DNA of 64,000 nt from a virus (taxonomy: Duplodnaviria > Caudoviricetes): IMG/VR virus record IMGVR_UViG_3300044633_001982; one strand, 5' to 3'. Below are positions 1,401 to 25,220 of the stretch, one piece after another; positions within the stretch are counted from its first letter, which is position 1; every line of letters begins with the position of its first letter. The notes beneath the pieces are model-generated. The model was not told the DNA's origin. It made no database searches and was given only the letters and a program-made list of their open reading frames with translations. Made by a program: the position numbers and the translations under genes.

Positions 1401-1475
1401 TGGTACCCCCGTCTGGACTCGAACCAGAAATAACTGCTTAGAAGGCAGTGGGTATATCCCTTTACCTACAGGGGC
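1401..1475 (-). tRNA. tRNA-Arg (anticodon UCU), CCA encoded
   Basis: Cloverleaf: acceptor GCCCCTG/CGGGGGT, D stem GGTA/TACC, anticodon arm ACTGC-CTTCTAA-GCAGT, T arm TCTGG-TTCGAGT-CCAGA, 3' ACCA. Confidence 0.95.
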
Positions 1476-4533: not shown

Positions 4534-4926
4534 TGGTGGAGATGCCGGGGGTCGAACCCGGGTCCAAATAAGTAAGACATAAAACACTACACGTTTAGGT
4601 CATTGTTTTTCTAAACAATCCGAAACTTCACAATTCCCTTATTTTATAGTGGTTCGGTTTACTGAGAACTAATCCTCCACTTTGTTTCTTTTTGGGTAGA
4701 AACCACACCACAACTACGACTTCTGTTGCAAGGTTGTATGTCTGCCGACCCCTAGTAGGTTAATTTTAAATTAAGCTACAGATACTTCTTCAGTACGGAT
4801 TAAACCGATTGTAGAAAGTTTGTTGATAACGTTGCCGTTTATAATTTGAATCAGTTTAACGGAGTTAACTCAGCTCCGACGTGCGTTTTATGGCGTATCA
4901 TACCTGTCAAAGCCAAAAACATCCCC
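4534..4926 (-). ncRNA. ssrA: tmRNA (393 nt)
   Basis: 5' GGGGATG...TTTGACAGG pairs with 3' CATCTCC-ACCA including the G3.U alanine identity pair; T arm CCGGGTTCGACCCCCGG; TAAACGTGTAG segment; internal tag ORF after ATAAAC. Confidence 0.95.
4771..4836 (-). other. tmRNA tag reading frame (A)GNVINKLSTIGLIRTEEVSVA*
   Basis: GGC resume codon after ATAAAC, 21 codons to TAA; resume codon assigned by analogy with Bacteroidota tmRNAs. Confidence 0.75.
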
Positions 4927-4986: not shown

Positions 4987-4995
4987 TAAAAAAAT

Positions 4996-6078
4996 ATGAA
5001 ACTTTACGAAGCGTTAAAAAAATTTATTCAGGGTACGGCCGATGAATGGGACGTAAGGAGGAGTGATGATAACACTAGAATAGGTAGAGTGAATCAAAAT
5101 AGTTTAGGTAAATCGTTAGTTACATTAACATTTTATGAAGAGGAATTTGCAAAAATTTTCTTGGGGGACAATTCCGAATCTGATAATAACACCTATTATT
5201 TCAATGTAGCATTTAATAGAAGGGGATATTATGGAGGTTCAGTATTTGTCGACGCTCATTATTTTGGGGATGATGAGTGGAAATACGGTGCCTGTTGGTG
5301 GTATTTTAATGAAGACAACAGAAATTTATTTTTATCAATTTTAAAAATACTTAATCCGGGATTAGTTGAATTAGATGATAATGGAAAACCTGATGACGAG
5401 GCGTTTCAATTTTTACTAAGTAAATATACTGATGAAATTGAACAAATTAATTACGAATACGCTGAACTTTATGATGAGTCATTAGTTGTTGGTTTAAGGG
5501 AGTATATTTTAAAAAAAACTTGTGATGTATTTTCAGAATTTGGAATTTATGAGAAAGATTGTGCCCGTCAATACTTAACAACAGTTTCGGTATTAATGTC
5601 TTTATGGAAAATGACTAATACTGATGAAGACTCAAATGTTTTAGATTTATTACATAATTTAGCAATACAAAGAGATTTAATAATTGATGAAGATTTATAT
5701 GAAGATTATTACTCATATTTTGACGAAAAAAACTTTGACTCAGAATCATTTAATAGAACTGTAGAAAGACAATTAGAAAAAATAAAAGACAAAATTGATG
5801 AGGAAATAGATGAAGGTACATTACAAGATAGTATTAAAATACATAATCAATTATCAAAATTAGGTTATAATTTTGGTAGGTGGTATAGTTTACCTGACCA
5901 AAAACATTTTAATAAAATTGGAAAAAAGAACGAAAAATTTAAGTTACTTAACGTAATTGGGGGAAAAGTAGTATTCAATAGGTTAAATCCTGACAATGGA
6001 ATAGCACAGTCCGCAATGGGACCCGAAGATTTTTTTAATTATTTATACCATCCAGAATTGTTTGAATCAAAAAAATGA
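4996..6078 (+). CDS. Hypothetical protein
   Basis: 360-aa ORF, no motif recognised. Confidence 0.75.
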   Translation: MKLYEALKKFIQGTADEWDVRRSDDNTRIGRVNQNSLGKSLVTLTFYEEEFAKIFLGDNSESDNNTYYFNVAFNRRGYYGGSVFVDAHYFGDDEWKYGACWWYFNEDNRNLFLSILKILNPGLVELDDNGKPDDEAFQFLLSKYTDEIEQINYEYAELYDESLVVGLREYILKKTCDVFSEFGIYEKDCARQYLTTVSVLMSLWKMTNTDEDSNVLDLLHNLAIQRDLIIDEDLYEDYYSYFDEKNFDSESFNRTVERQLEKIKDKIDEEIDEGTLQDSIKIHNQLSKLGYNFGRWYSLPDQKHFNKIGKKNEKFKLLNVIGGKVVFNRLNPDNGIAQSAMGPEDFFNYLYHPELFESKK

Positions 6079-14115: not shown

Positions 14116-14122
14116 TATTTAT
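14116..14122 (+). promoter_or_regulatory. Candidate late promoter TATTTAT
   Basis: 4 nt before the terminase ATG. Confidence 0.6.
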
Positions 14123-14126
14123 TATT

Positions 14127-15875
14127 ATGAATTTAACTAAAGAACAAGTTATTTTGGAATATACCAAGTGTATGAAATCAACTCCATACGCTTTAAAAAC
14201 ATATTTACAAACTTACGACAATACTGTTCAAAAATATGTACCATTAGAATTATTTCCTGACCAAATAGGTTTAGTAAATGATTATGAGACGTATAATGAA
14301 AACATTGCTTTAAAATATAGACAGGCTGGGGTATCCACTGTAACCGCGGCATGGTCTTCAAAAAAATTAATATTTGCTTCTAAAAACAAACCTGAGAAAA
14401 TATTAATTATTGCCAATAAATTAGATACTGCCGTTGAAGTGGCAAATAAAATTAGAGGATTTACCGAACAATGGCCTTCTTGGGTTGGTGTTACCTTTTC
14501 CTCTGAAAAAAATTCACAAAGACACTTTAAATTAACTAATGGTTGTGAGGTTAAGGCGGTTGCGACATCTAAGGATGCCCTACGTGGATATACTCCGACT
14601 ATTTTAATATTTGATGAGGCGGCGTATATTGAGGCTGACGGGGATTTTTGGGCGGCTTGTATGGCGTCGTTATCTACGGGGGGTAAAGTTATTGTGGTTT
14701 CTACTCCTAATGGATTTGACCCAATTTATTATGAAATTTATGACCAAGCGTTAAAAGGTATGAATGAGTTTAAAATTTCAGAAATGGTTTGGTGGAAAGA
14801 CCCAAGGTACGCTAAAGATTTACAATTATTAAATGTTAAAGACATAATACATTACTATTTGAATCGTAATGAATATCAAGATGTTGAAATAATTGATTAC
14901 TCTAATAAAGAAAAAGACTTCGATGAAATACGTAGATTAGTTAATGACGGATATCGACCTAGTTCTTCTTGGTACGAATCAATGGTTAAAAAATTGAAGT
15001 ACGATAAAAGAAAAGTTAACCAAGAATTAGAGTGTGCGTTTTTAGGTTCGGGTGATAACGTAATTGATTCAAACATTATTGAAAATATTAAATCAACAAT
15101 GATTAAAGACCCTGTCAATAAGATGATTGGTGGTTCTTTATGGATATGGAAAGAACCTGAAATTGGACATAAATACATTATGGGTGTTGACGTTTCAAGG
15201 GGAGATAGTGAGGATTATTCGACATTTCAAATTTTGGATTTTACAACACGTGAACAAGTTGCGGAATATGTTGGTAAAATACCACCTGATATTCTTGCGG
15301 AAATCTGTTATAAATGGGCGATGATGTATTCGGCATTTATTGTTGTGGATATAACTGGGGGTATGGGTGTTACAACATCTCGTAAATTACAAGAGTTAGG
15401 GTACAAAGATTTATATATTGATGGATTAGACTCAACAAATAGATGGAAATGGGACCCAAAATCTCAAGATAAAATACCAGGTCTAAACTTTAACAATAAA
15501 AGAGTACAAATTATTGCCATGTTTGAAGAATATTTGAGACATGGATTAATTATAAGGTCTAATAGATTACTTAATGAAATGAATACGTTCATTTATATTA
15601 ATGGTAGACCTGACCACCAAAAAGGACAACATGATGATTTAATTATGTCAATTGCAATGGCGGTGTACATTGGAGAATCTTCATTTGCTTCAATAACAAA
15701 AGTTAGTGAGCAGGCAAAAGTCATGATTGAAGCTTGGCAAGTTAATAATAATGAACCAACTTATAGGTCACAATTTTTTGACCCAATGACAGATTCAAAC
15801 AAAAAACAAACAAATAATCAACCAAGTAAAAGTGATTATCAGAATTATGGATGGTTATTTGGGGGTATGAGATAA
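14127..15875 (+). CDS. terL: Terminase large subunit (T4 gp17-like)
   Basis: LKYRQAGVST Walker A, ILIFDEAA Walker B, VIVVSTPNG, QELECAFLGS, YIMGVDVSRG and HDDLIMS nuclease motifs. Confidence 0.95.
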   Translation: MNLTKEQVILEYTKCMKSTPYALKTYLQTYDNTVQKYVPLELFPDQIGLVNDYETYNENIALKYRQAGVSTVTAAWSSKKLIFASKNKPEKILIIANKLDTAVEVANKIRGFTEQWPSWVGVTFSSEKNSQRHFKLTNGCEVKAVATSKDALRGYTPTILIFDEAAYIEADGDFWAACMASLSTGGKVIVVSTPNGFDPIYYEIYDQALKGMNEFKISEMVWWKDPRYAKDLQLLNVKDIIHYYLNRNEYQDVEIIDYSNKEKDFDEIRRLVNDGYRPSSSWYESMVKKLKYDKRKVNQELECAFLGSGDNVIDSNIIENIKSTMIKDPVNKMIGGSLWIWKEPEIGHKYIMGVDVSRGDSEDYSTFQILDFTTREQVAEYVGKIPPDILAEICYKWAMMYSAFIVVDITGGMGVTTSRKLQELGYKDLYIDGLDSTNRWKWDPKSQDKIPGLNFNNKRVQIIAMFEEYLRHGLIIRSNRLLNEMNTFIYINGRPDHQKGQHDDLIMSIAMAVYIGESSFASITKVSEQAKVMIEAWQVNNNEPTYRSQFFDPMTDSNKKQTNNQPSKSDYQNYGWLFGGMR

Positions 15876-17482: not shown

Positions 17483-19297
17483 ATGGCAGAAAAAAATTTT
17501 ACAGTTTGGCAAAGATTGACACAGGCGTTTGGTCCAAATTCTTTATTGAATCAAGATTATCCTAGTTTAAAATTTGACAAAAAAGAACTTCTAAAAACAA
17601 CTTCAAAAAGAGAGTATGAAAAAGAGTTGTTACAAGCTCAACAAACTTTTTATCTTTCGAATCAATGGACTAAAATTGAAAATAATTTATATACTCAAGC
17701 AACATATTATGAGCCAACAAGATTATCGGCTTTTTATGATTATGAGTCTATGGAATTTACTCCTGAAATATCGGCAGCGTTAGATATCTACGCTGAGGAG
17801 TCAACAACTGTAAATGAGGATGGTTTTATGTTACAAATTTATTCTGAATCAAATAGAATAAAATCAATATTGGCCGATTTATTTAATAATATTTTAGACA
17901 TCAATACAAACTTACCAATGTGGACAAGAAACACATGTAAGTATGGTGATAACTTTGTATATATCAAATTAGACCCTGAAAAAGGTGTAATTGGTTGTAT
18001 GCAATTACCAATCATCGAAATCGAAAGATTAGAAAGAGGTATGATGGCTAAAGGTAAGTCAATTGACGAGGACCCAACTAAAAAACATTTAAAATTCACA
18101 TGGAAACACAAAGACATGGAATTTAATACTTGGGAAATTGCTCACTTTAGATTATTGGGTGATGACAGAAGATTACCTTATGGTACGTCTATGTTGGAAA
18201 AGGCTCGTCGTATATGGAAACAATTGTTATTATCTGAAGATGCTATGTTAATCTATAGAACTTCAAGAGCCCCTGAAAGACGTGTGTTTAAAGTATTTGT
18301 TGGAAACATGGATGATAAGGACGTTGAACCATATATCCAAAGAGTCGCAAATAAGTTTAAAAGAGACCAAGTAGTTGATTCTAAAACAGGTAACGTTGAT
18401 ATGAGATTTAATCAAATGGCGGTTGACCAAGATTATTTTATTCCTGTACGTGACCCTGCACAAGCGTCTCCAATTGAAACACTACCTGGAGCTCAAAACT
18501 TATCTGAAATTGCGGACATTGAGTATATCCAAAAGAAATTATTAACTGCGTTACGTGTACCTAAAGCTTTCTTAGGATTTGAGGAAGTTGTTGGTGATGG
18601 TAAAAACTTAGCGTTACAAGATATTCGTTTTGCAAGAACAATCAACAGAATTCAAAAGAGTATGTTGCAAGAACTTAACAAAATTGGTATTATTCACTTG
18701 TTTATGTTAGGATTTGAAGATGAATTATCTAATTTTAGATTATCATTAACAAACCCATCTAAACAAGCCGACTTGTTAATGGTGGACATTTGGAAAGAAA
18801 AAATACTTCTTTACAAAGATATGGTTGCAGACCCTGGTTCAGGAATTGCTGCGGTATCACAGTCTTGGGCTAAAAAACATATCCTTGGATTTTCTGATGA
18901 AGAAATTAAACTCGATATTCAACAACAACGTATTGAAAAAGCAGTTGGTGAGGAGCTTAAGAAAACTGCTGAAGTCATAGTTAAAACAGGTTTATTTGAT
19001 AATATAGATAAACTATACGGTAAAAAAGAAGGTGAACCTGGCGGGGCTCCATCTGCACCGTCTGAGGGTGGTACACCTTCAGATTTAGGAGGAGGTGGTC
19101 CAATTGGAGGAGAAACCCCTCCACCACCCCCACCTGGAGGAGAAGCTCCCCCAACGGTACCTGAAAATTTAAATCCTAAGAATAAAGATTTAATTCTTGA
19201 AAAAGTTCTCAGAGAGGACGATGAGTTTGTGGACTTTGAAAAAAACAAAGATTCTATGAAAGAAATAAATGACACTTTAGAAAGATTACTAAAGTAA
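17483..19297 (+). CDS. Portal protein (T4 gp20-like)
   Basis: PEISAALDIYAEES, YGTSMLEKARRIWKQL, EDAMLIYRTSRAPERRVFKVFVGNM, DYFIPVR, IETLPGAQNL..IADIEY..KKL..ALRVP. Confidence 0.95.
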   Translation: MAEKNFTVWQRLTQAFGPNSLLNQDYPSLKFDKKELLKTTSKREYEKELLQAQQTFYLSNQWTKIENNLYTQATYYEPTRLSAFYDYESMEFTPEISAALDIYAEESTTVNEDGFMLQIYSESNRIKSILADLFNNILDINTNLPMWTRNTCKYGDNFVYIKLDPEKGVIGCMQLPIIEIERLERGMMAKGKSIDEDPTKKHLKFTWKHKDMEFNTWEIAHFRLLGDDRRLPYGTSMLEKARRIWKQLLLSEDAMLIYRTSRAPERRVFKVFVGNMDDKDVEPYIQRVANKFKRDQVVDSKTGNVDMRFNQMAVDQDYFIPVRDPAQASPIETLPGAQNLSEIADIEYIQKKLLTALRVPKAFLGFEEVVGDGKNLALQDIRFARTINRIQKSMLQELNKIGIIHLFMLGFEDELSNFRLSLTNPSKQADLLMVDIWKEKILLYKDMVADPGSGIAAVSQSWAKKHILGFSDEEIKLDIQQQRIEKAVGEELKKTAEVIVKTGLFDNIDKLYGKKEGEPGGAPSAPSEGGTPSDLGGGGPIGGETPPPPPPGGEAPPTVPENLNPKNKDLILEKVLREDDEFVDFEKNKDSMKEINDTLERLLK

Positions 19298-19311: not shown

Positions 19312-20028
19312 ATGAAATTTGGACTTTATAAAACAGCAATAGAAAAAAAATTAGTTAACTCATTTGTTAGTGAGAATTTAACTAAAGACATGAAACAATT
19401 CAAAGATTTAGTTTTGAATTCTGAAGAAACTAAAACTTTATTTTTCATTTATGATAAATTAAATGAAAATTTAGGTTTAGATAAAGATAGTGCAAATATT
19501 CTTGTTGATGAAGTTATCAAAGAAACTAAAGACATTATTATTCCAAATAACCATTTAGAAAAATTAAATAAATGGTTAAAAAATGAATTATCTGAGTCAG
19601 AATATTCTCACATAGATAAAATTTTAAACACAAATATTAATAAAATTGAAGAAAGGATTGAAAGTAGAAAAATTGTTGTTGAAAATCTAATGAAAGAAAA
19701 ACAAACAAAAAAAACTACCCCTAAATTACCTATATCATCTTTAAAGAAAATTGCAAACTCAGTAGCTTCAAAATATCTATCTAACTTAGACGAATCAACT
19801 CAAAAAGAAGTCATTTCATTACTTAAAGAAAATGAAGACGTTTTAGAAATTAAATTTAATGAGGAAAAAGAACAAGTTATATCTAAATTAAATTCCCTTA
19901 TTGAGTCAGAAACAGAAGAAGAGACTAAGAAAAAAATAAATGAGACTAAAGAAAAAGTCACATCTACAATTTTTTCAGTTAACGAATTAATTAAAATTAA
20001 AGAACTAAATTCACATTTGGTTCTCTAA
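19312..20028 (+). CDS. Hypothetical protein of the head module
   Basis: 238-aa ORF between portal and protease. Confidence 0.75.
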   Translation: MKFGLYKTAIEKKLVNSFVSENLTKDMKQFKDLVLNSEETKTLFFIYDKLNENLGLDKDSANILVDEVIKETKDIIIPNNHLEKLNKWLKNELSESEYSHIDKILNTNINKIEERIESRKIVVENLMKEKQTKKTTPKLPISSLKKIANSVASKYLSNLDESTQKEVISLLKENEDVLEIKFNEEKEQVISKLNSLIESETEEETKKKINETKEKVTSTIFSVNELIKIKELNSHLVL

Positions 20029-20199
20029 TTTTGATTGTAGGTAAATAGCCTTTCTTTTTTCCTCTCTTTTAGTTGTACTTTTCTTAGCAAAATACTTTCT
20101 TTTAGTTAATTCTTTAACTTGTTTAACTTTGATAACTTTACTTTTAAGTTCTTTCAAAGCCTTTTCAATGTTTTGATTTTTTACTTTTACAATTAGCAT
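20011..20199 (-). CDS. rpsU: Ribosomal protein bS21
   Basis: MLIVKVKNQNIEKALKELKSKV...ELTKRKYFAKKSTTKREEKRKAIYLQ follows the Bacteroidota bS21 pattern (MLII.V....IE.ALK..K.K......EL..R..F.K.S..RR...KA.Y). Confidence 0.88.
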   Translation of the reverse strand: MLIVKVKNQNIEKALKELKSKVIKVKQVKELTKRKYFAKKSTTKREEKRKAIYLQSKLENQM

Positions 20200-20212
20200 T
20201 TTTTCTTTTTGA

Positions 20213-20244
20213 CAAAAATATTAAAGTTTATTATATTTTCCAAA
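20213..20244 (-). promoter_or_regulatory. Bacteroidota sigma-A type promoter (rpsU)
   Basis: TTTG-N20-TATTTTTG, 13 nt before the ATG; overlaps a divergent TTGACA-N17-TATATT at 20209-20237. Confidence 0.6.
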
Positions 20245-20270
20245 AATAAACGTATGAATTATGAACACAA

Positions 20271-20729
20271 ATGAAGAAGGGAAAATCGGTATCTGTCAAA
20301 GGGTACAAAAAATTCAAGGCAAATTATGGAACAGTAGATTCTAAAAATTTAAAATCTTTTTATATAAATATACAATCATGGTTAACACCAAAGAAAGATG
20401 AGGAAAATTGGGAAAGAATTGTCATGAATTTTAATAGGTCAATTAGACACACAATTTATGAAATACTAAATTTTGATTTTATTGACACTAATTTTATAGT
20501 TGATACGGATTTAAGAAGTAGTGGACTTTCAGTCAATAAAAGTTCTTTTATGAACTTAGAAATAACTTTCTATATTAAAAATATAAATGATTTCAAATCT
20601 CCAATAATTAAAGATTTTGTTAAAACAATTATTGATTTAATTGATTCAGAAAATTTTAAAAACAACAAAAATTTTGTTTTTAACTTAACTAAAACAAACA
20701 AAACAAAAGTGAATAATATTTATTTATAA
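20271..20729 (+). CDS. Hypothetical protein
   Basis: 152-aa ORF divergent from rpsU. Confidence 0.75.
   Translation: MKKGKSVSVKGYKKFKANYGTVDSKNLKSFYINIQSWLTPKKDEENWERIVMNFNRSIRHTIYEILNFDFIDTNFIVDTDLRSSGLSVNKSSFMNLEITFYIKNINDFKSPIIKDFVKTIIDLIDSENFKNNKNFVFNLTKTNKTKVNNIYL
20721..20727 (+). promoter_or_regulatory. Candidate late promoter TATTTAT
   Basis: 10 nt before the protease ATG; overlapping copy at 20717. Confidence 0.55.
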
Positions 20730-20737
20730 AATTCACA

Positions 20738-21457
20738 ATGCAAGATTTGAAAATTTTAGGTCCAAAAGATTCAGGTAAAGGAATACTGATAGAAATGGAT
20801 GCGGGATATATCTCACCGACAGAGTCTCGTAACTTGGCGGTAATACAAGAAAGTAAATCGGCTTTAGACTATTCAAAACCTTTTGAGTTCTATGCTGTTT
20901 TACAAAAATATAATACACCAAACAGAAATGGTAGAATTTATCCTGAAAAAATATTAAAAAGAGAAGTTGAAAATTATAAAAAAAATTATATATCAAAAGG
21001 AACCGCTCTTTCGGAATTAAACCATCCTGAATCATCATTAATTGATTTAGATAGAGTTTCTCACATAATCACTGAAATGTGGTGGGATGGTCATATATTA
21101 CTTGGTAAATTAAAACTTTTAACATCACCTGGGTTTCACGAAAGAGGAATTGTATCAACAAAAGGAGACCAAGCCGCAAATCTTTTAAGACAAGGTGTTA
21201 CATTAGGGATATCATCAAGAGGAGTCGGTTCGTTAGTTAAAAAGGGGGAACAAAATGAAGTACAAGAAGATTTTGAACTAATTTGTTTTGACTTAGTATC
21301 ATCACCATCTACTCCAGGAGCATATCTTTTCCAAGATATGGCTGATAAACACAAGTACGAAGAAAATTTGCAAGAAGAACAATTACAAAAAGCTGAAAGG
21401 TCAACAACAAAATCACTTGATTTAATGAAAAAACTTAACGATTATTTATCAAAATAA
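20738..21457 (+). CDS. Prohead core protease (T4 gp21-like)
   Basis: NRNGRIYP, ALSELNHP, DLDRVSH, LGISSRGVGS, DLVSSPSTPGA. Confidence 0.95.
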   Translation: MQDLKILGPKDSGKGILIEMDAGYISPTESRNLAVIQESKSALDYSKPFEFYAVLQKYNTPNRNGRIYPEKILKREVENYKKNYISKGTALSELNHPESSLIDLDRVSHIITEMWWDGHILLGKLKLLTSPGFHERGIVSTKGDQAANLLRQGVTLGISSRGVGSLVKKGEQNEVQEDFELICFDLVSSPSTPGAYLFQDMADKHKYEENLQEEQLQKAERSTTKSLDLMKKLNDYLSK

Positions 21458-21679: not shown

Positions 21680-21701
21680 GTATTAATTTTTAAAGTTTAT
21701 G

Positions 21702-21727
21702 AAAAAGGAGGGATTACCCTCCTTTTT
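21702..21727 (+). terminator. Intrinsic terminator
   Basis: AAAAAGGAGGG-ATTA-CCCTCCTTTTT. Confidence 0.8.
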
Positions 21728-21770
21728 TATTTTATTTACATTATGTGGTGAATTTTTCTAAAGTACTGAA

Positions 21771-21783: not shown

Positions 21784-23400
21784 ATGCAAAAAATGGCAGA
21801 AAATAAAAACTTAGTTGAAGAAGCGGTAATCCAATTAAAAAATTTGGAAGAAGCTATCAATGAAAACGCAAAAGAAATACTTGAGTCAACAATGAAGCAA
21901 GAAATTAGCGAGCTTGTAAAGGAGTCTTTAAAAGAGGCTGAAGAAGAAGAGGAAACTGAAGATTTTGAAGAAGAATCTGATGAATCGGAAGAAGAAGAAT
22001 CTGATGAATTTGAAATGGAAGACGAAGAAGGTTCTGAAGAAGAATTTGATGAGTTTGAAATGGATGATGAAGAAGAGTCTGACGAAGAAGGTTTTGAAGA
22101 TGAAATGGGACAGGATGATGAAGTAATTGATTTTACACAAATGCCTGATTCTGATGAAACTCAAGATTTGTTATTAACAGTTTTCAAAAAAATGAAACCA
22201 GAAGATGAAGTCGAAATCCAAAAAGACGGGGAGTATGCACATTTGAAAGACGGTGACGATGAGTACCTTATTCCAATGAACGAATCTCGTGAGGATGATG
22301 ACGATGACAATGACGACGAAGAATTTGAGTCAGAGTTAGAAGAAACTATCTATGAAATTTCTATGGACGACGAAACAGGTGAAATGGAAGAACAATGGCA
22401 AGGTTTGGCCGCTGATATGGCAATTGCCGCAGCACCAGTTATTGCTGACAAAATGTTTGGAGACGATGAAGAAGAAGAATTAGAAGAAACTATTTACGAA
22501 CTTCACATGGATGGTGAAGATGGTGAAGATGATGATGAACTTCCTTCTCCTCCAAAAGAAGAAAGACCTGGTGGGATGTTTTATGAAAGAGACATGGATG
22601 TTGAGTATGAAGAAGATGAAGATGATGATATGGAAGACGGATACGAAGAATTTCCAATGGATGATTTAGAAGAAATGGATTATCAATCTGAAGAATATAC
22701 AGAAGAAATGATGCATGAGACTACTAAACCAAAAGTTGGTAAGGGTGGTAAAATCGGAAAACCTAAATTTTCATACAAGAAAACTACTGGTGGTTTTAAA
22801 GAAAAAATGACAGCCGCTAATCCTACAAAAGGTACAGGTAAACCAAAGTTTGAATACAAAGAATCAACTAAAAAAATGAAGAAAGGTGAATTTAAAGAAG
22901 CTTCTCGTACATTAGGTTCAGGTTCAAAATTTAGAAAAGGTGGTCTACCGAAACCAGCCGCTCATTCGGCATTCAATATTAATATTGAAGAACACTATTC
23001 TTTGATGGAAGAAGTAGAAATGTTGAGAGCTAAAAATGAAGAGTACAGAAAAGCTTTGAATATTTTCAGAGACAAACTTAACGAAGTTGCTGTATTCAAT
23101 TCAAATTTAGCGTACACTACAAGATTATTTACTGAACACACAACATCAAAGCAAGAAAAAATAAATGTTTTAAGAAGATTTGATTCTGTAGAAACACTTA
23201 AAGAATCTAAAAATCTATATAAAACTATTAAGGACGAACTTTCATCAACTACTAAAGGAAAAATCACTGAGTCAATCGAAAAAGTAATGGACAACGAACC
23301 AGTAATTACAGGTTCTGCTCAAAACTTAATTGAATCTAAGACTTACGAAAATCCTCAGTTTATGAGAATGAAGGACTTAATGACAAAAATAATAAAATAA
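21784..23400 (+). CDS. Prohead scaffold/core protein (T4 gp22-like)
   Basis: Very acidic coiled-coil protein between protease and MCP; LNEVAVFNSNLAYTTRLF; start likely 21784 or 21793 rather than 21745. Confidence 0.75.
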   Translation: MQKMAENKNLVEEAVIQLKNLEEAINENAKEILESTMKQEISELVKESLKEAEEEEETEDFEEESDESEEEESDEFEMEDEEGSEEEFDEFEMDDEEESDEEGFEDEMGQDDEVIDFTQMPDSDETQDLLLTVFKKMKPEDEVEIQKDGEYAHLKDGDDEYLIPMNESREDDDDDNDDEEFESELEETIYEISMDDETGEMEEQWQGLAADMAIAAAPVIADKMFGDDEEEELEETIYELHMDGEDGEDDDELPSPPKEERPGGMFYERDMDVEYEEDEDDDMEDGYEEFPMDDLEEMDYQSEEYTEEMMHETTKPKVGKGGKIGKPKFSYKKTTGGFKEKMTAANPTKGTGKPKFEYKESTKKMKKGEFKEASRTLGSGSKFRKGGLPKPAAHSAFNINIEEHYSLMEEVEMLRAKNEEYRKALNIFRDKLNEVAVFNSNLAYTTRLFTEHTTSKQEKINVLRRFDSVETLKESKNLYKTIKDELSSTTKGKITESIEKVMDNEPVITGSAQNLIESKTYENPQFMRMKDLMTKIIK

Positions 23401-23426
23401 ACAATTAATAAAAATCCAAAAATAAA

Positions 23427-25220
23427 ATGGGAGCATTATTAGAATCAGGTCTTGTTGGTAACATCGGTCTTAAGCACCTTAAAGTTATCAAAGAAGATAC
23501 TATTAACAAATGGGACAAATTAGGGTTCCTTGAAGGTCTTCGTGGCCACCTAAAAGAAAACGTAGCACAATTATATGAGAACCAAGCTTCTCACTTAATC
23601 AACGAAGCTACTTCAGACGGAAATTCAGGTTCATTTGAAACTGTTGTTTTCCCGATTATCAGACGTGTATTCTCTAAATTATTAGCGAATGAAATCGTTT
23701 CTGTACAAGCGATGAACTTACCAATCGGTAAATTGTTCTTCTTTGTACCAAAAATCCAAGGTTACACTGGTACAACTCAGTTAACTAATGATACTACATC
23801 TCCATGGGCTCACAGAGCACCTGTAGGAGCACCTGGTAACTATCCTGGTGACCCAAATGCAGGTTATAATGATGCTGCAGCTTTCACTAAGAATCTTTAT
23901 GATTTGTATTATGAAGGTAATGAGGCGGCTTTAGACCCACCTGGATTGTATGATTACTCAAAAGGACGTTGGTCAGCGACTACTGCGGCGACTTTCACTC
24001 AAGTATGGACAGGACAAAGATTAGTACAATCAGGTTATCCAAGTACTACTTACAGAAAAGTAATCGTTTCTTTATCTGGTTTCAGTACTTCAGGTGAAGG
24101 TAGATTAGTTGGTCCTGAAGGTAACCAAATGGATACTGAGGATTTCTTAGCAAGTTTACGTTTAGTTTCTTCAGCAAATACACAAAACCCATTATTGTTC
24201 AGAGTTGTTACTCAAGTATACGGTCAAGGTATTGTTAACTACGGTTCACAATCACAAGCTGCTTGGCCAACTCAAGGTAACGGTGGTTACTACAATAACA
24301 TTTGTAGTGCATCTGGTGTTATCTACTTAGAAGTTGATTTAAGTGTACCTTGTTCTGTAACTGATAACAGTTTAGATGGTTATTCAGGTTCTACATTCGC
24401 AGCTGACACAGCCACTGGTTCTATCATTGCGGTTTATAAAATCTATGAAGAACTTGAGTTTGAAGACGCTATCGGTGAAGTTTCTTTTGAATTAGATTCA
24501 GTAACTGTTACTGTAACTGAAAGAAAGTTAAGAGCTCAGTGGTCTCCTGAATTGGCTCAAGACGTTGCGGCATTCCACAACATCGATGCTGAGGCTGAAT
24601 TAACAGCTTTATTATCTGAACAAGTTGCGGCTGAAATCGACCGTGAAATCTTACGTGACTTACGTAAAGGTGCAGCTTGGCAATTACGTTGGGATTACAA
24701 CGGATGGAAGAGAGGAACTGCAGCTAACCCATTAACTCAGTACACTCAAAAAGACTGGAACCAAACATTGATTACTGCAATCAACCAATTGTCAGCACAA
24801 ATCCACAAGTCAACACTTCGTGGTGGAGCTAACTGGATTGTTGTATCTTCTGAGGTTTCTGCAATCTTCGATGACTTAGAATACTTCCACGTATCTAACG
24901 CTTCTCCTGAGCAAGACCAATACAACATGGGTATTGAGAGAGTTGGTACTTTAGCTGGTCGTTACCAAGTATACCGTGACCCTTACTTCCCGCCAAACCA
25001 AGTTTTGATTGGACACAAGGGTACTTCATTACTTGACACTGGTTACGTTTACGCACCATATGTACCTCTACAATTAACTCCAACTATGTACAATCCATTC
25101 AACTTCACACCTATCAAAGGTATCATGACACGTTACGCTAAGAAGATGGTTAACAACCGTTTCTACGGACGTATCACAGTTGACGGTGTACGTACATTTG
25201 ACTTGAGAGAGTTAAGATAA
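23427..25220 (+). CDS. Major capsid protein (T4 gp23-like)
   Basis: FPIIRRVFSKLLANEIVSVQAMNLPIGKLF, RKLRAQWSPELAQD..AFH.IDAEAEL...LSEQVAAEIDREI, YAPYVPL, GIMTRY. Confidence 0.97.
   Translation: MGALLESGLVGNIGLKHLKVIKEDTINKWDKLGFLEGLRGHLKENVAQLYENQASHLINEATSDGNSGSFETVVFPIIRRVFSKLLANEIVSVQAMNLPIGKLFFFVPKIQGYTGTTQLTNDTTSPWAHRAPVGAPGNYPGDPNAGYNDAAAFTKNLYDLYYEGNEAALDPPGLYDYSKGRWSATTAATFTQVWTGQRLVQSGYPSTTYRKVIVSLSGFSTSGEGRLVGPEGNQMDTEDFLASLRLVSSANTQNPLLFRVVTQVYGQGIVNYGSQSQAAWPTQGNGGYYNNICSASGVIYLEVDLSVPCSVTDNSLDGYSGSTFAADTATGSIIAVYKIYEELEFEDAIGEVSFELDSVTVTVTERKLRAQWSPELAQDVAAFHNIDAEAELTALLSEQVAAEIDREILRDLRKGAAWQLRWDYNGWKRGTAANPLTQYTQKDWNQTLITAINQLSAQIHKSTLRGGANWIVVSSEVSAIFDDLEYFHVSNASPEQDQYNMGIERVGTLAGRYQVYRDPYFPPNQVLIGHKGTSLLDTGYVYAPYVPLQLTPTMYNPFNFTPIKGIMTRYAKKMVNNRFYGRITVDGVRTFDLRELR

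Follow-up and report, generated by a model that had tools for sequence, protein, structure and literature searches.

Reverse-strand genes for ribosomal protein bS21 (rpsU) within the head gene block of large phages were described by Chen et al. in 2022 (ISME Commun 2:31, PMC9723584), in five clades from freshwater with genomes of 293-331 kb, a G+C content of 31-34%, and predicted Bacteroidetes hosts. In the bS21 proteins of these phages, the position of Tyr54 of Flavobacterium johnsoniae bS21 is occupied by a conserved aromatic residue, and the N-terminal helix is divergent. The word 'promoter' is absent from that paper, and the leader of the phage rpsU gene was not analysed there. The present analysis concerns the bS21 gene of IMG/VR virus record IMGVR_UViG_3300044633_001982 (Duplodnaviria; Caudoviricetes), located at positions 20011-20199 on the minus strand of a stretch of 64,000 nucleotides (nt), hereafter called the window. 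As in the phages of Chen et al., bS21 is encoded on the reverse strand with a conserved hypothetical gene on each side, in a block comprising the large terminase (TerL), portal, protease, and major capsid protein (MCP) genes. The G+C content is likewise low (26-34% in the window), an aromatic residue occupies the Tyr54 position, the first helix is divergent, and the gene order bS21-fam498-portal is the same. No structural difference from those phages was found, and the window is a member of their group. Judged by its sequence, the phage appears to be one of the T4-like phages from freshwater, about 300 kb in size and with Flavobacteriia-like hosts, whose clade has been published, and the antisense layout of bS21 is itself already known from the 2022 publication.

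Host rpsU has a strong Shine-Dalgarno (SD) sequence that is preferred by bS21-free ribosomes, which results in autoregulation (McNutt et al. 2023, PMC9976891), and bS21-free ribosomes are less active on SD-less mRNAs (PMC9976891). For F. johnsoniae, reporters as well as depletion strains are available. With the rpsU genes of this species and of other Flavobacteriales (PMC9976891; Jha et al. 2021, PMC7797042), the phage gene shares the protein family, the conserved Tyr, and a promoter box of the TAnnTTTG type. It is unlike them in its leader: the host has GAGAGGAGGTGT, with a pairing of about -21.5 kcal/mol to the anti-SD and 28-31 nt between box and ATG, whereas the phage has no such sequence, a pairing of -2.5 kcal/mol, and a distance of 13 nt. 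Two further systems bear on the comparison. The bS21 of the Pelagibacter phage HTVC008M (Mizuno et al. 2019, PMC6375957) enters Escherichia coli ribosomes, as cited in PMC9976891; this is likewise a T4-like phage with bS21, but its host belongs to another phylum, and the logic of anti-SD occlusion therefore does not apply. In Francisella tularensis, bS21 paralogues give ribosomes differing mRNA preferences (PMC9578407, PMC13374519). These paralogues are a precedent for ribosomes specialised through bS21, although they are cellular rather than viral and carry no link to SD-blindness. The literature background in the preliminary description of this DNA, namely bS21 genes beside head genes in large freshwater phages, occlusion of the anti-SD with the help of bS21 in Flavobacterium, and autoregulation of host rpsU, was quoted correctly from its sources (PMC9723584, PMC7797042, PMC9976891).

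Taken as a whole, the best explanation of the locus, and one that we hold to be reasonably probable, is that it encodes a working phage bS21 whose message is SD-less, stands outside the host feedback, and is transcribed from a host-type promoter. The 62-amino acid (aa) product appears, by sequence comparison, to be a true Bacteroidia-type bS21. It matches the Pfam family Ribosomal_S21 (PF01165) at 37.2 bits (cut-off 27, E 2.4e-9), with residues 4-53 aligned over profile positions 2-52 of 55, and its PHROG match is phrog_21469, 'ribosomal protein S21'. The protein is strongly basic, with 20 Lys or Arg residues versus 6 Asp or Glu and a net charge of +14. Compared with solved structures, it best matches the bS21 chains in 9i5v (E 1.6e-7) and in 7JIL, the F. 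johnsoniae ribosome (E 7e-7). Tyr53, which lies in a KAIY motif, is aligned to Tyr54 of F. johnsoniae bS21 (7JIL chain z); the motif had been called C-terminal, but since nine residues follow Tyr53, it lies near the C-terminus and not at the end. At the Tyr54 position, Tyr is near-invariant across the phage bS21 family and is replaced by Phe in one subclade.

The phage and Flavobacterium proteins are 42% identical. Both retain K-A-(A/I)-Y in the second helix, and the first helix differs, reading IEKALKELKSKVIKTRQ in 34 distinct phage sequences versus IDRALKRYKRKFDKTGT in 55 Flavobacterium sequences. No relative carrying the phage-type helix word was found in 185,579 prokaryote genomes, and a tblastn search of 50,697 phage records returned one weak match (50% identity), in an unannotated metagenomic phage record. 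The reading frame is unbroken in 81 of 81 copies examined, and 18 residues are invariant in a sample of 22 database relatives. With a distinct first helix and no relative of that type in the prokaryote genomes searched, the phage bS21s appear to be a separate lineage of long standing that is maintained by purifying selection, rather than recent captures. A bS21 of 64 aa, about 67% identical, was also observed in another phage context (positions 4993-5187 of IMGVR_UViG_3300032282_005473), where it forms a stand-alone antisense cassette.

As the preliminary description stated, bS21 sits antisense between the genes for the T4-type gp20 portal (17483-19297, plus strand; PF07230, 259.8 bits) and the T4-type gp21 prohead protease (20738-21457, plus strand), with one hypothetical gene on each side. 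The gene on the portal side encodes 238 aa (19312-20028, plus strand) and is convergent to bS21, with a 3' overlap of exactly 18 nt (20011-20028), again as first described. The gene on the other side encodes 152 aa (20271-20729, plus strand), is divergent from bS21, and adjoins the protease gene. A pattern scan of IMG/VR with the bS21 protein gave 80 loci, and in 79 of these bS21 runs antisense, with homologues of the 238-aa and 152-aa genes on its two sides and portal and protease beyond them. The 3' overlap with the 238-aa gene is found in 80 of 80 loci in which both genes were located, and measures 4 nt in 64 loci, 12 nt in eight, and 18 nt in eight. The divergent intergenic region between bS21 and the 152-aa gene spans 69-92 nt. 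Across the related loci, portal identity is 52-99%, and identity of the 238-aa protein falls to about 30%. Because the same layout is found in 79 of 80 loci with neighbouring proteins as little as about 30% identical, it appears to be ancestral to a deep clade, and the word 'inserted', which had been used of this gene, does not hold if a recent event is meant. The closest cultured relative by DNA is Flavobacterium phage vB_FspM_immuto, which has a matching order of head genes, all on one strand, and is without bS21. This relative, the F. johnsoniae ribosome among the best structural matches, the SD-less genes, and the host-type boxes point, indirectly, to a Bacteroidetes host.

The ATG of bS21 is directly preceded by an A-rich leader of 13 nt, TCAAAAAGAAAAA (20200-20212, minus strand), whose first four bases, TCAA (20212-20209), are kept in all related loci. 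SD strength was taken as the energy of the strongest pairing that the last 30 nt ahead of the start codon can form with the 15-nt anti-SD tail, whose sequence is presumed here apart from its certain CCUCC core, and 80 Flavobacterium rpsU loci (L081-L160) served as the host control. By this measure, the low value of the window's leader is typical of its relatives: 30 distinct phage bS21 leaders have a median of -0.3 kcal/mol and a strongest value of -6.4, versus a median of -21.5 for the 80 Flavobacterium leaders, typically GAGAGGAGGTGT. The leaders of the window and of the phage clade fail the published threshold for a strong SD (< -13 kcal/mol). The earlier observation that TCAAAAAGAAAAA has no SD is therefore correct, and the absence is confirmed clade-wide. 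It is also the default of this phage's genes and is notable only against host rpsU: the 74 open reading frames called in the window have a median of -1.8 kcal/mol, and random 30-mers drawn from the window have a median of -3.1. Adenine at position -3 is enriched, being present in 65% of the window's genes, and an enrichment of A at -3 has been described for Bacteroidia initiation (PMC13000457). No RNA structure is predicted for the bS21 leader (z -0.26), and the GTTTATT/AATAAAC hairpin of the window is not retained in sister clades. The Flavobacterium rpsU leaders were seen to be near-invariant, with TAnnTTTG, about 10 nt, and then GAGAGGAGGTGT placed 8 nt before the ATG; one exception, L100, has no SD at the start chosen by the script and may reflect a mis-picked start.

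Upstream of this leader lie two copies of TATTTTTG on the minus strand. The proximal copy (20213-20220) is an exact match to the Bacteroidota -7 consensus TAnnTTTG and agrees, in register, at 7 of 9 positions with the late-box consensus ATATTTATA. The distal copy (20241-20248) has its own TTG at 20270-20268 with a spacer of N19. The preliminary description had reported TTTG-N20-TATTTTTG in place of TATTTAT, and this reading is accurate: TTTG at 20244-20241, its -33 element, comprises the last four bases of the distal box and is separated by N20 from the proximal box, and no exact TATTTAT occurs within 40 nt upstream of the bS21 start in this window. bS21 is accordingly preceded by two tandem bipartite matches (TTG 17-21 nt upstream of TAnnTTTG), with spacers of N20 and N19.

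The neighbouring genes use a different element. TATTTAT occurs 57 times in the window, counting both strands, and 20 copies fall within 45 nt upstream of a same-strand start, a placement to be compared with 2.7% expected by position and 12% for the reverse complement. It is also found before late genes of the cultured phage immuto, further from the ATG. TATTTAT is a real phage box. On the coding strand, it was observed 4-14 nt before many starts, for instance at 14116, 17468, 19301, 20717, 27884, 29696, and 37218; it stands 4 nt upstream of the ATG of the 238-aa gene, and the protease gene has boxes at 20717 and 20721.

Both boxes were counted over distinct upstream sequences of the related loci, TATTTAT within 40 nt and TAnnTTTG within 60 nt of the start. 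TATTTAT precedes the 238-aa gene in 31 of 31 sequences, the protease gene in 26 of 26, TerL in 17 of 19, and the portal gene in 18 of 30, and the corresponding counts of TAnnTTTG are 0/31, 0/26, 0/19, and 3/30. Upstream of bS21, TATTTAT is present in 8 of 31 and TAnnTTTG in 18 of 31 sequences. The 152-aa gene has neither box in 27 sequences, and neither is found upstream of its copy in the window. Overall, TAnnTTTG precedes bS21 in 18/31 sequences versus 3/206 for nine other head-module families (Fisher p 5e-16, with related sequences counted); all three of the latter cases are portal genes, and the other counted families have none. The full TTG-N17-21-TAnnTTTG pattern is present in 9 of 31 bS21 upstream sequences and in no other family. 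In the positive control, TAnnTTTG was found in 76 of 78 distinct host rpsU upstream sequences, ending 28-31 nt before the ATG, and just 18 of these 78 sequences have the upstream TTG as well. For a host-type box, the evidence that carries weight appears to be the enrichment at bS21 in this comparison.

Several observations weigh against a host-type promoter. The bipartite pattern occurs 14 times in the whole window versus 13.4 expected from Markov simulations, and because this count equals chance, a single match is weak evidence alone. The distance of 13 nt between box and ATG is shorter than the 28-31 nt of host rpsU and implies a leader of about 8 nt. The position of the box relative to TCAA also varies between clades. 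In the clade of the window (six distinct sequences, one of them a near match), a TAnnTTTG-type box directly adjoins TCAA; in the largest group (13 distinct sequences from 52 loci), TAnnTTTG lies 9 nt further upstream and is followed by an invariant TATATA; and a third group (seven of 26 distinct sister sequences, from 12 loci) mostly has the late-like TATATTTATA in the same register. In addition, bS21 RNA has been found together with late-gene RNA (Chen et al., PMC9723584), and TCAA (TTGA on the plus strand) may be part of the promoter of the divergent 152-aa gene, together with the conserved element discussed below.

In an alternative account, which we regard as possible though doubtful, bS21 is a late gene, with the box beside TCAA being a slightly degenerate TATTTAT(A) for a phage late sigma factor and the likeness to the host -7 element a by-product. 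Consistent with it, the window's ATATTTTTG stands in the register at which sister clades have a perfect late box, an exact TATTTAT lies upstream of bS21 in 8 of 31 distinct relatives, and in the stand-alone cassette of the other lineage noted above, TATTTAT stands 4 nt ahead of the bS21 ATG and the gene is directly followed by its own terminator hairpin. However, the two of nine positions at which ATATTTTTG departs from ATATTTATA are precisely those that create TAnnTTTG. Moreover, the largest group keeps a separate TAnnTTTG with invariant TA and TT, a G conserved at 75% or more, and one variable 'n' position, and among head genes TAnnTTTG is nearly restricted to bS21.

The co-occurrence of bS21 RNA with late RNAs in lake metatranscriptomes also favours a late gene. 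Chen et al. (PMC9723584) reported that bS21 RNA tracks that of bS21_CN and of late genes, and that the pair "may be transcribed together"; in the gene order of their supplement (fam656, bS21, fam498, portal), bS21_CN (fam498) corresponds to the 238-aa gene. Their Methods describe per-gene counts of mapped bases from the Lake Rotsee metatranscriptomes, and strand is unmentioned, so that the counts, as described, are strand-blind. No terminator-like site was found between or near bS21 and the 238-aa gene. Given this convergent, overlapping arrangement, the constant presence of TATTTAT before the 238-aa gene, and the lack of an intervening terminator, antisense read-through from the 238-aa gene could yield the published co-expression. 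Weighing both sides, transcription of bS21 from the host-type TAnnTTTG box seems the likelier of the two, at about an even chance. The host-type promoter of the preliminary description thus stands in part: the TAnnTTTG box is present, and TATTTAT marks the 238-aa and protease genes, but the assignment is a matter of motifs, and some sister clades have a late-like box. Elsewhere in the window, other well-placed bipartite host-type matches were observed before a few small genes and before tRNA-Arg (anticodon TCT; 1401-1475, minus strand), where TTG-N17-21-TAnnTTTG runs from 1518 with a -7 box of TATATTTG.

It is improbable that the main role of bS21 lies outside the ribosomes of late translation, whether through packaging into the capsid along with head-core proteins and delivery at infection or by acting with its neighbours in the head module. 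Chen et al. (PMC9723584) raised packaging as a possibility, bS21_CN is missing in outgroup phages without bS21, and bS21 is fixed between two conserved hypothetical genes, between portal and protease. Against this, all ribosome-binding features of bS21 are retained, and comparisons with Pfam, PHROG, solved structures, and BFVD tied neither flanking protein to translation or to bS21; co-evolution of bS21 and its neighbours is expected from linkage alone. The flanking proteins have no match to a Pfam or PHROG family, and in BFVD they match only uncharacterised phage proteins. The 238-aa protein has an all-helical predicted model (pLDDT 78.6). The 152-aa protein, whose N-terminus is invariant and basic (MKKGK), has a confident alpha/beta AlphaFold model (pLDDT 84.7), and within BFVD it comes closest to an uncharacterised Myoviridae sp. 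ctPuP5 protein (TM 0.68-0.70). Among solved structures, the 152-aa model has no convincing relative (Foldseek E values of 0.027 or higher, top VIA Z 7.4); several type III secretion chaperones gave Z values of 5.9-7.2, which is within the range of noise. A role of the two proteins in head assembly is plausible because both genes lie between portal and protease.

The T4 head protease recognises the motif L/I-x-E, and T4-type head-protease or capsid-targeting sites were considered in two places, an invariant ..IE at the N-terminus of the 238-aa protein and IEK in bS21. This idea was dropped, since the register misfits L/I-x-E and the same Glu of bS21 is also present in at least one cellular bS21. 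Finally, that bS21 is a decaying or neutral passenger from the host has the small size of the gene in its favour and nothing else, and is refuted by the conservation of its frame, of its 18 invariant residues, and of its position in a deep clade, as well as by its distinctness from every cellular bS21 searched, so that this account is very improbable.

The intergenic region shared with the 152-aa gene contains two elements with near-fixed spacing in all clades. One is TCAA, and the other is the conserved box GTTTATTTT (20251-20243, minus strand; AAAATAAAC on the plus strand), which lies 29-31 nt from TCAA. Because AAAATAAAC is also found upstream of MCP in most clades (at about 23395-23402 on the plus strand in the window), the box probably belongs to the 152-aa gene rather than to bS21. 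Among the phage loci (L001-L080), both the 152-aa gene and MCP, which are usually without TATTTAT, were observed to have a conserved AAAATAAAC some 20-30 nt upstream, and this word may act as an expression signal of its own. Within the 5-kb region, the sigma-70-like sequence that matches best, TTGACA-17-TATATT (20209-20237, plus strand; 11 of 12 positions), points toward the 152-aa gene, and the TTGA in it corresponds, on the opposite strand, to the TCAA found in all clades. To our knowledge, Bacteroidia do not use the sigma-70 consensus TTGACA/TATATT, and the match is therefore not relied on.

The remainder of the head module is of T4 type and on the plus strand. TerL (14127-15875) is followed by a gene of unknown function (520 aa) before the portal gene, and the protease gene is followed by a gene for a DUF4494 protein and an unknown 551-aa gene before the gp23-type MCP (23427-25220). 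A strong terminator-like hairpin was observed between the DUF4494 and 551-aa genes (14 pairs, then a T run; 21699-21730, plus strand), so that the head module appears to consist of two or more transcription units. The window contains a second translation-related gene besides bS21, a transfer-messenger RNA (4534-4926, minus strand) that matches the full-length model of Rfam RF00023 at 129.9 bits and for which ARAGORN gives the tag peptide GNVINKLSTIGLIRTEEVSVA.

Returning to the favoured explanation, in which a working phage bS21 acts in the ribosome, the gene would be a one-gene transcription unit opposed to the head genes, whose 3' overlap with the 238-aa gene leaves no room for a terminator between them. 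Transcription would likely start at the host-sigma-type TAnnTTTG, as the motifs suggest, and not at a TATTTAT like that of the neighbours. The SD-less, A-rich, unstructured leader would allow ordinary host ribosomes with a hidden anti-SD to translate bS21 like the other phage mRNAs. The protein, in which the C-terminal helix and the anti-SD-stacking Tyr are preserved but the first helix is systematically unlike that of the host, would then fill the ribosomal bS21 site, and such ribosomes would be SD-blind and fully active on SD-less phage mRNAs. Filling of vacant bS21 sites by the phage copy would in turn lower translation of host rpsU. Since its message is without a strong SD, the phage bS21 would by logic fall outside the host autoregulation. 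Both this escape and the maintenance of SD-blind ribosomes by the phage protein are reasonable inferences from McNutt et al. 2023.

A more elaborate version, which casts the antisense bS21 unit as a timed switch against the host bS21 homeostat, is speculative and, with all its steps taken together, unlikely. Early in infection, the host RNA polymerase would transcribe bS21 from TAnnTTTG, and normal ribosomes would read the SD-less message. As vacant sites were filled, host rpsU with its strong SD would be turned off, and the phage bS21 would progressively replace that of the host. Later, TATTTAT-driven read-through from the convergent gene would silence bS21 by antisense transcription. If this were true, most of the RNA published as 'late expression' of bS21 would be antisense.

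Relative to the published description of these phages, the additions made here are modest. They comprise a measured, clade-wide loss of the autoregulatory SD, a host-type box that appears specific to bS21 and varies between clades, the fixed architecture of the divergent control region, and a caveat of strand on the published expression evidence, which is the sole such evidence so far and, as described, does not tell sense from antisense RNA. Among the ribosomal protein genes of viruses, that for bS21 is the commonest. The Bacteroidia host controls its own bS21 through a unique strong SD, and the phage copy is without that signal across a deep clade. Together with a promoter type that seems to differ from that of the neighbouring head genes, the loss of the SD turns the general notion that phage bS21 hijacks ribosomes into a specific idea that may be tested in F. 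johnsoniae.

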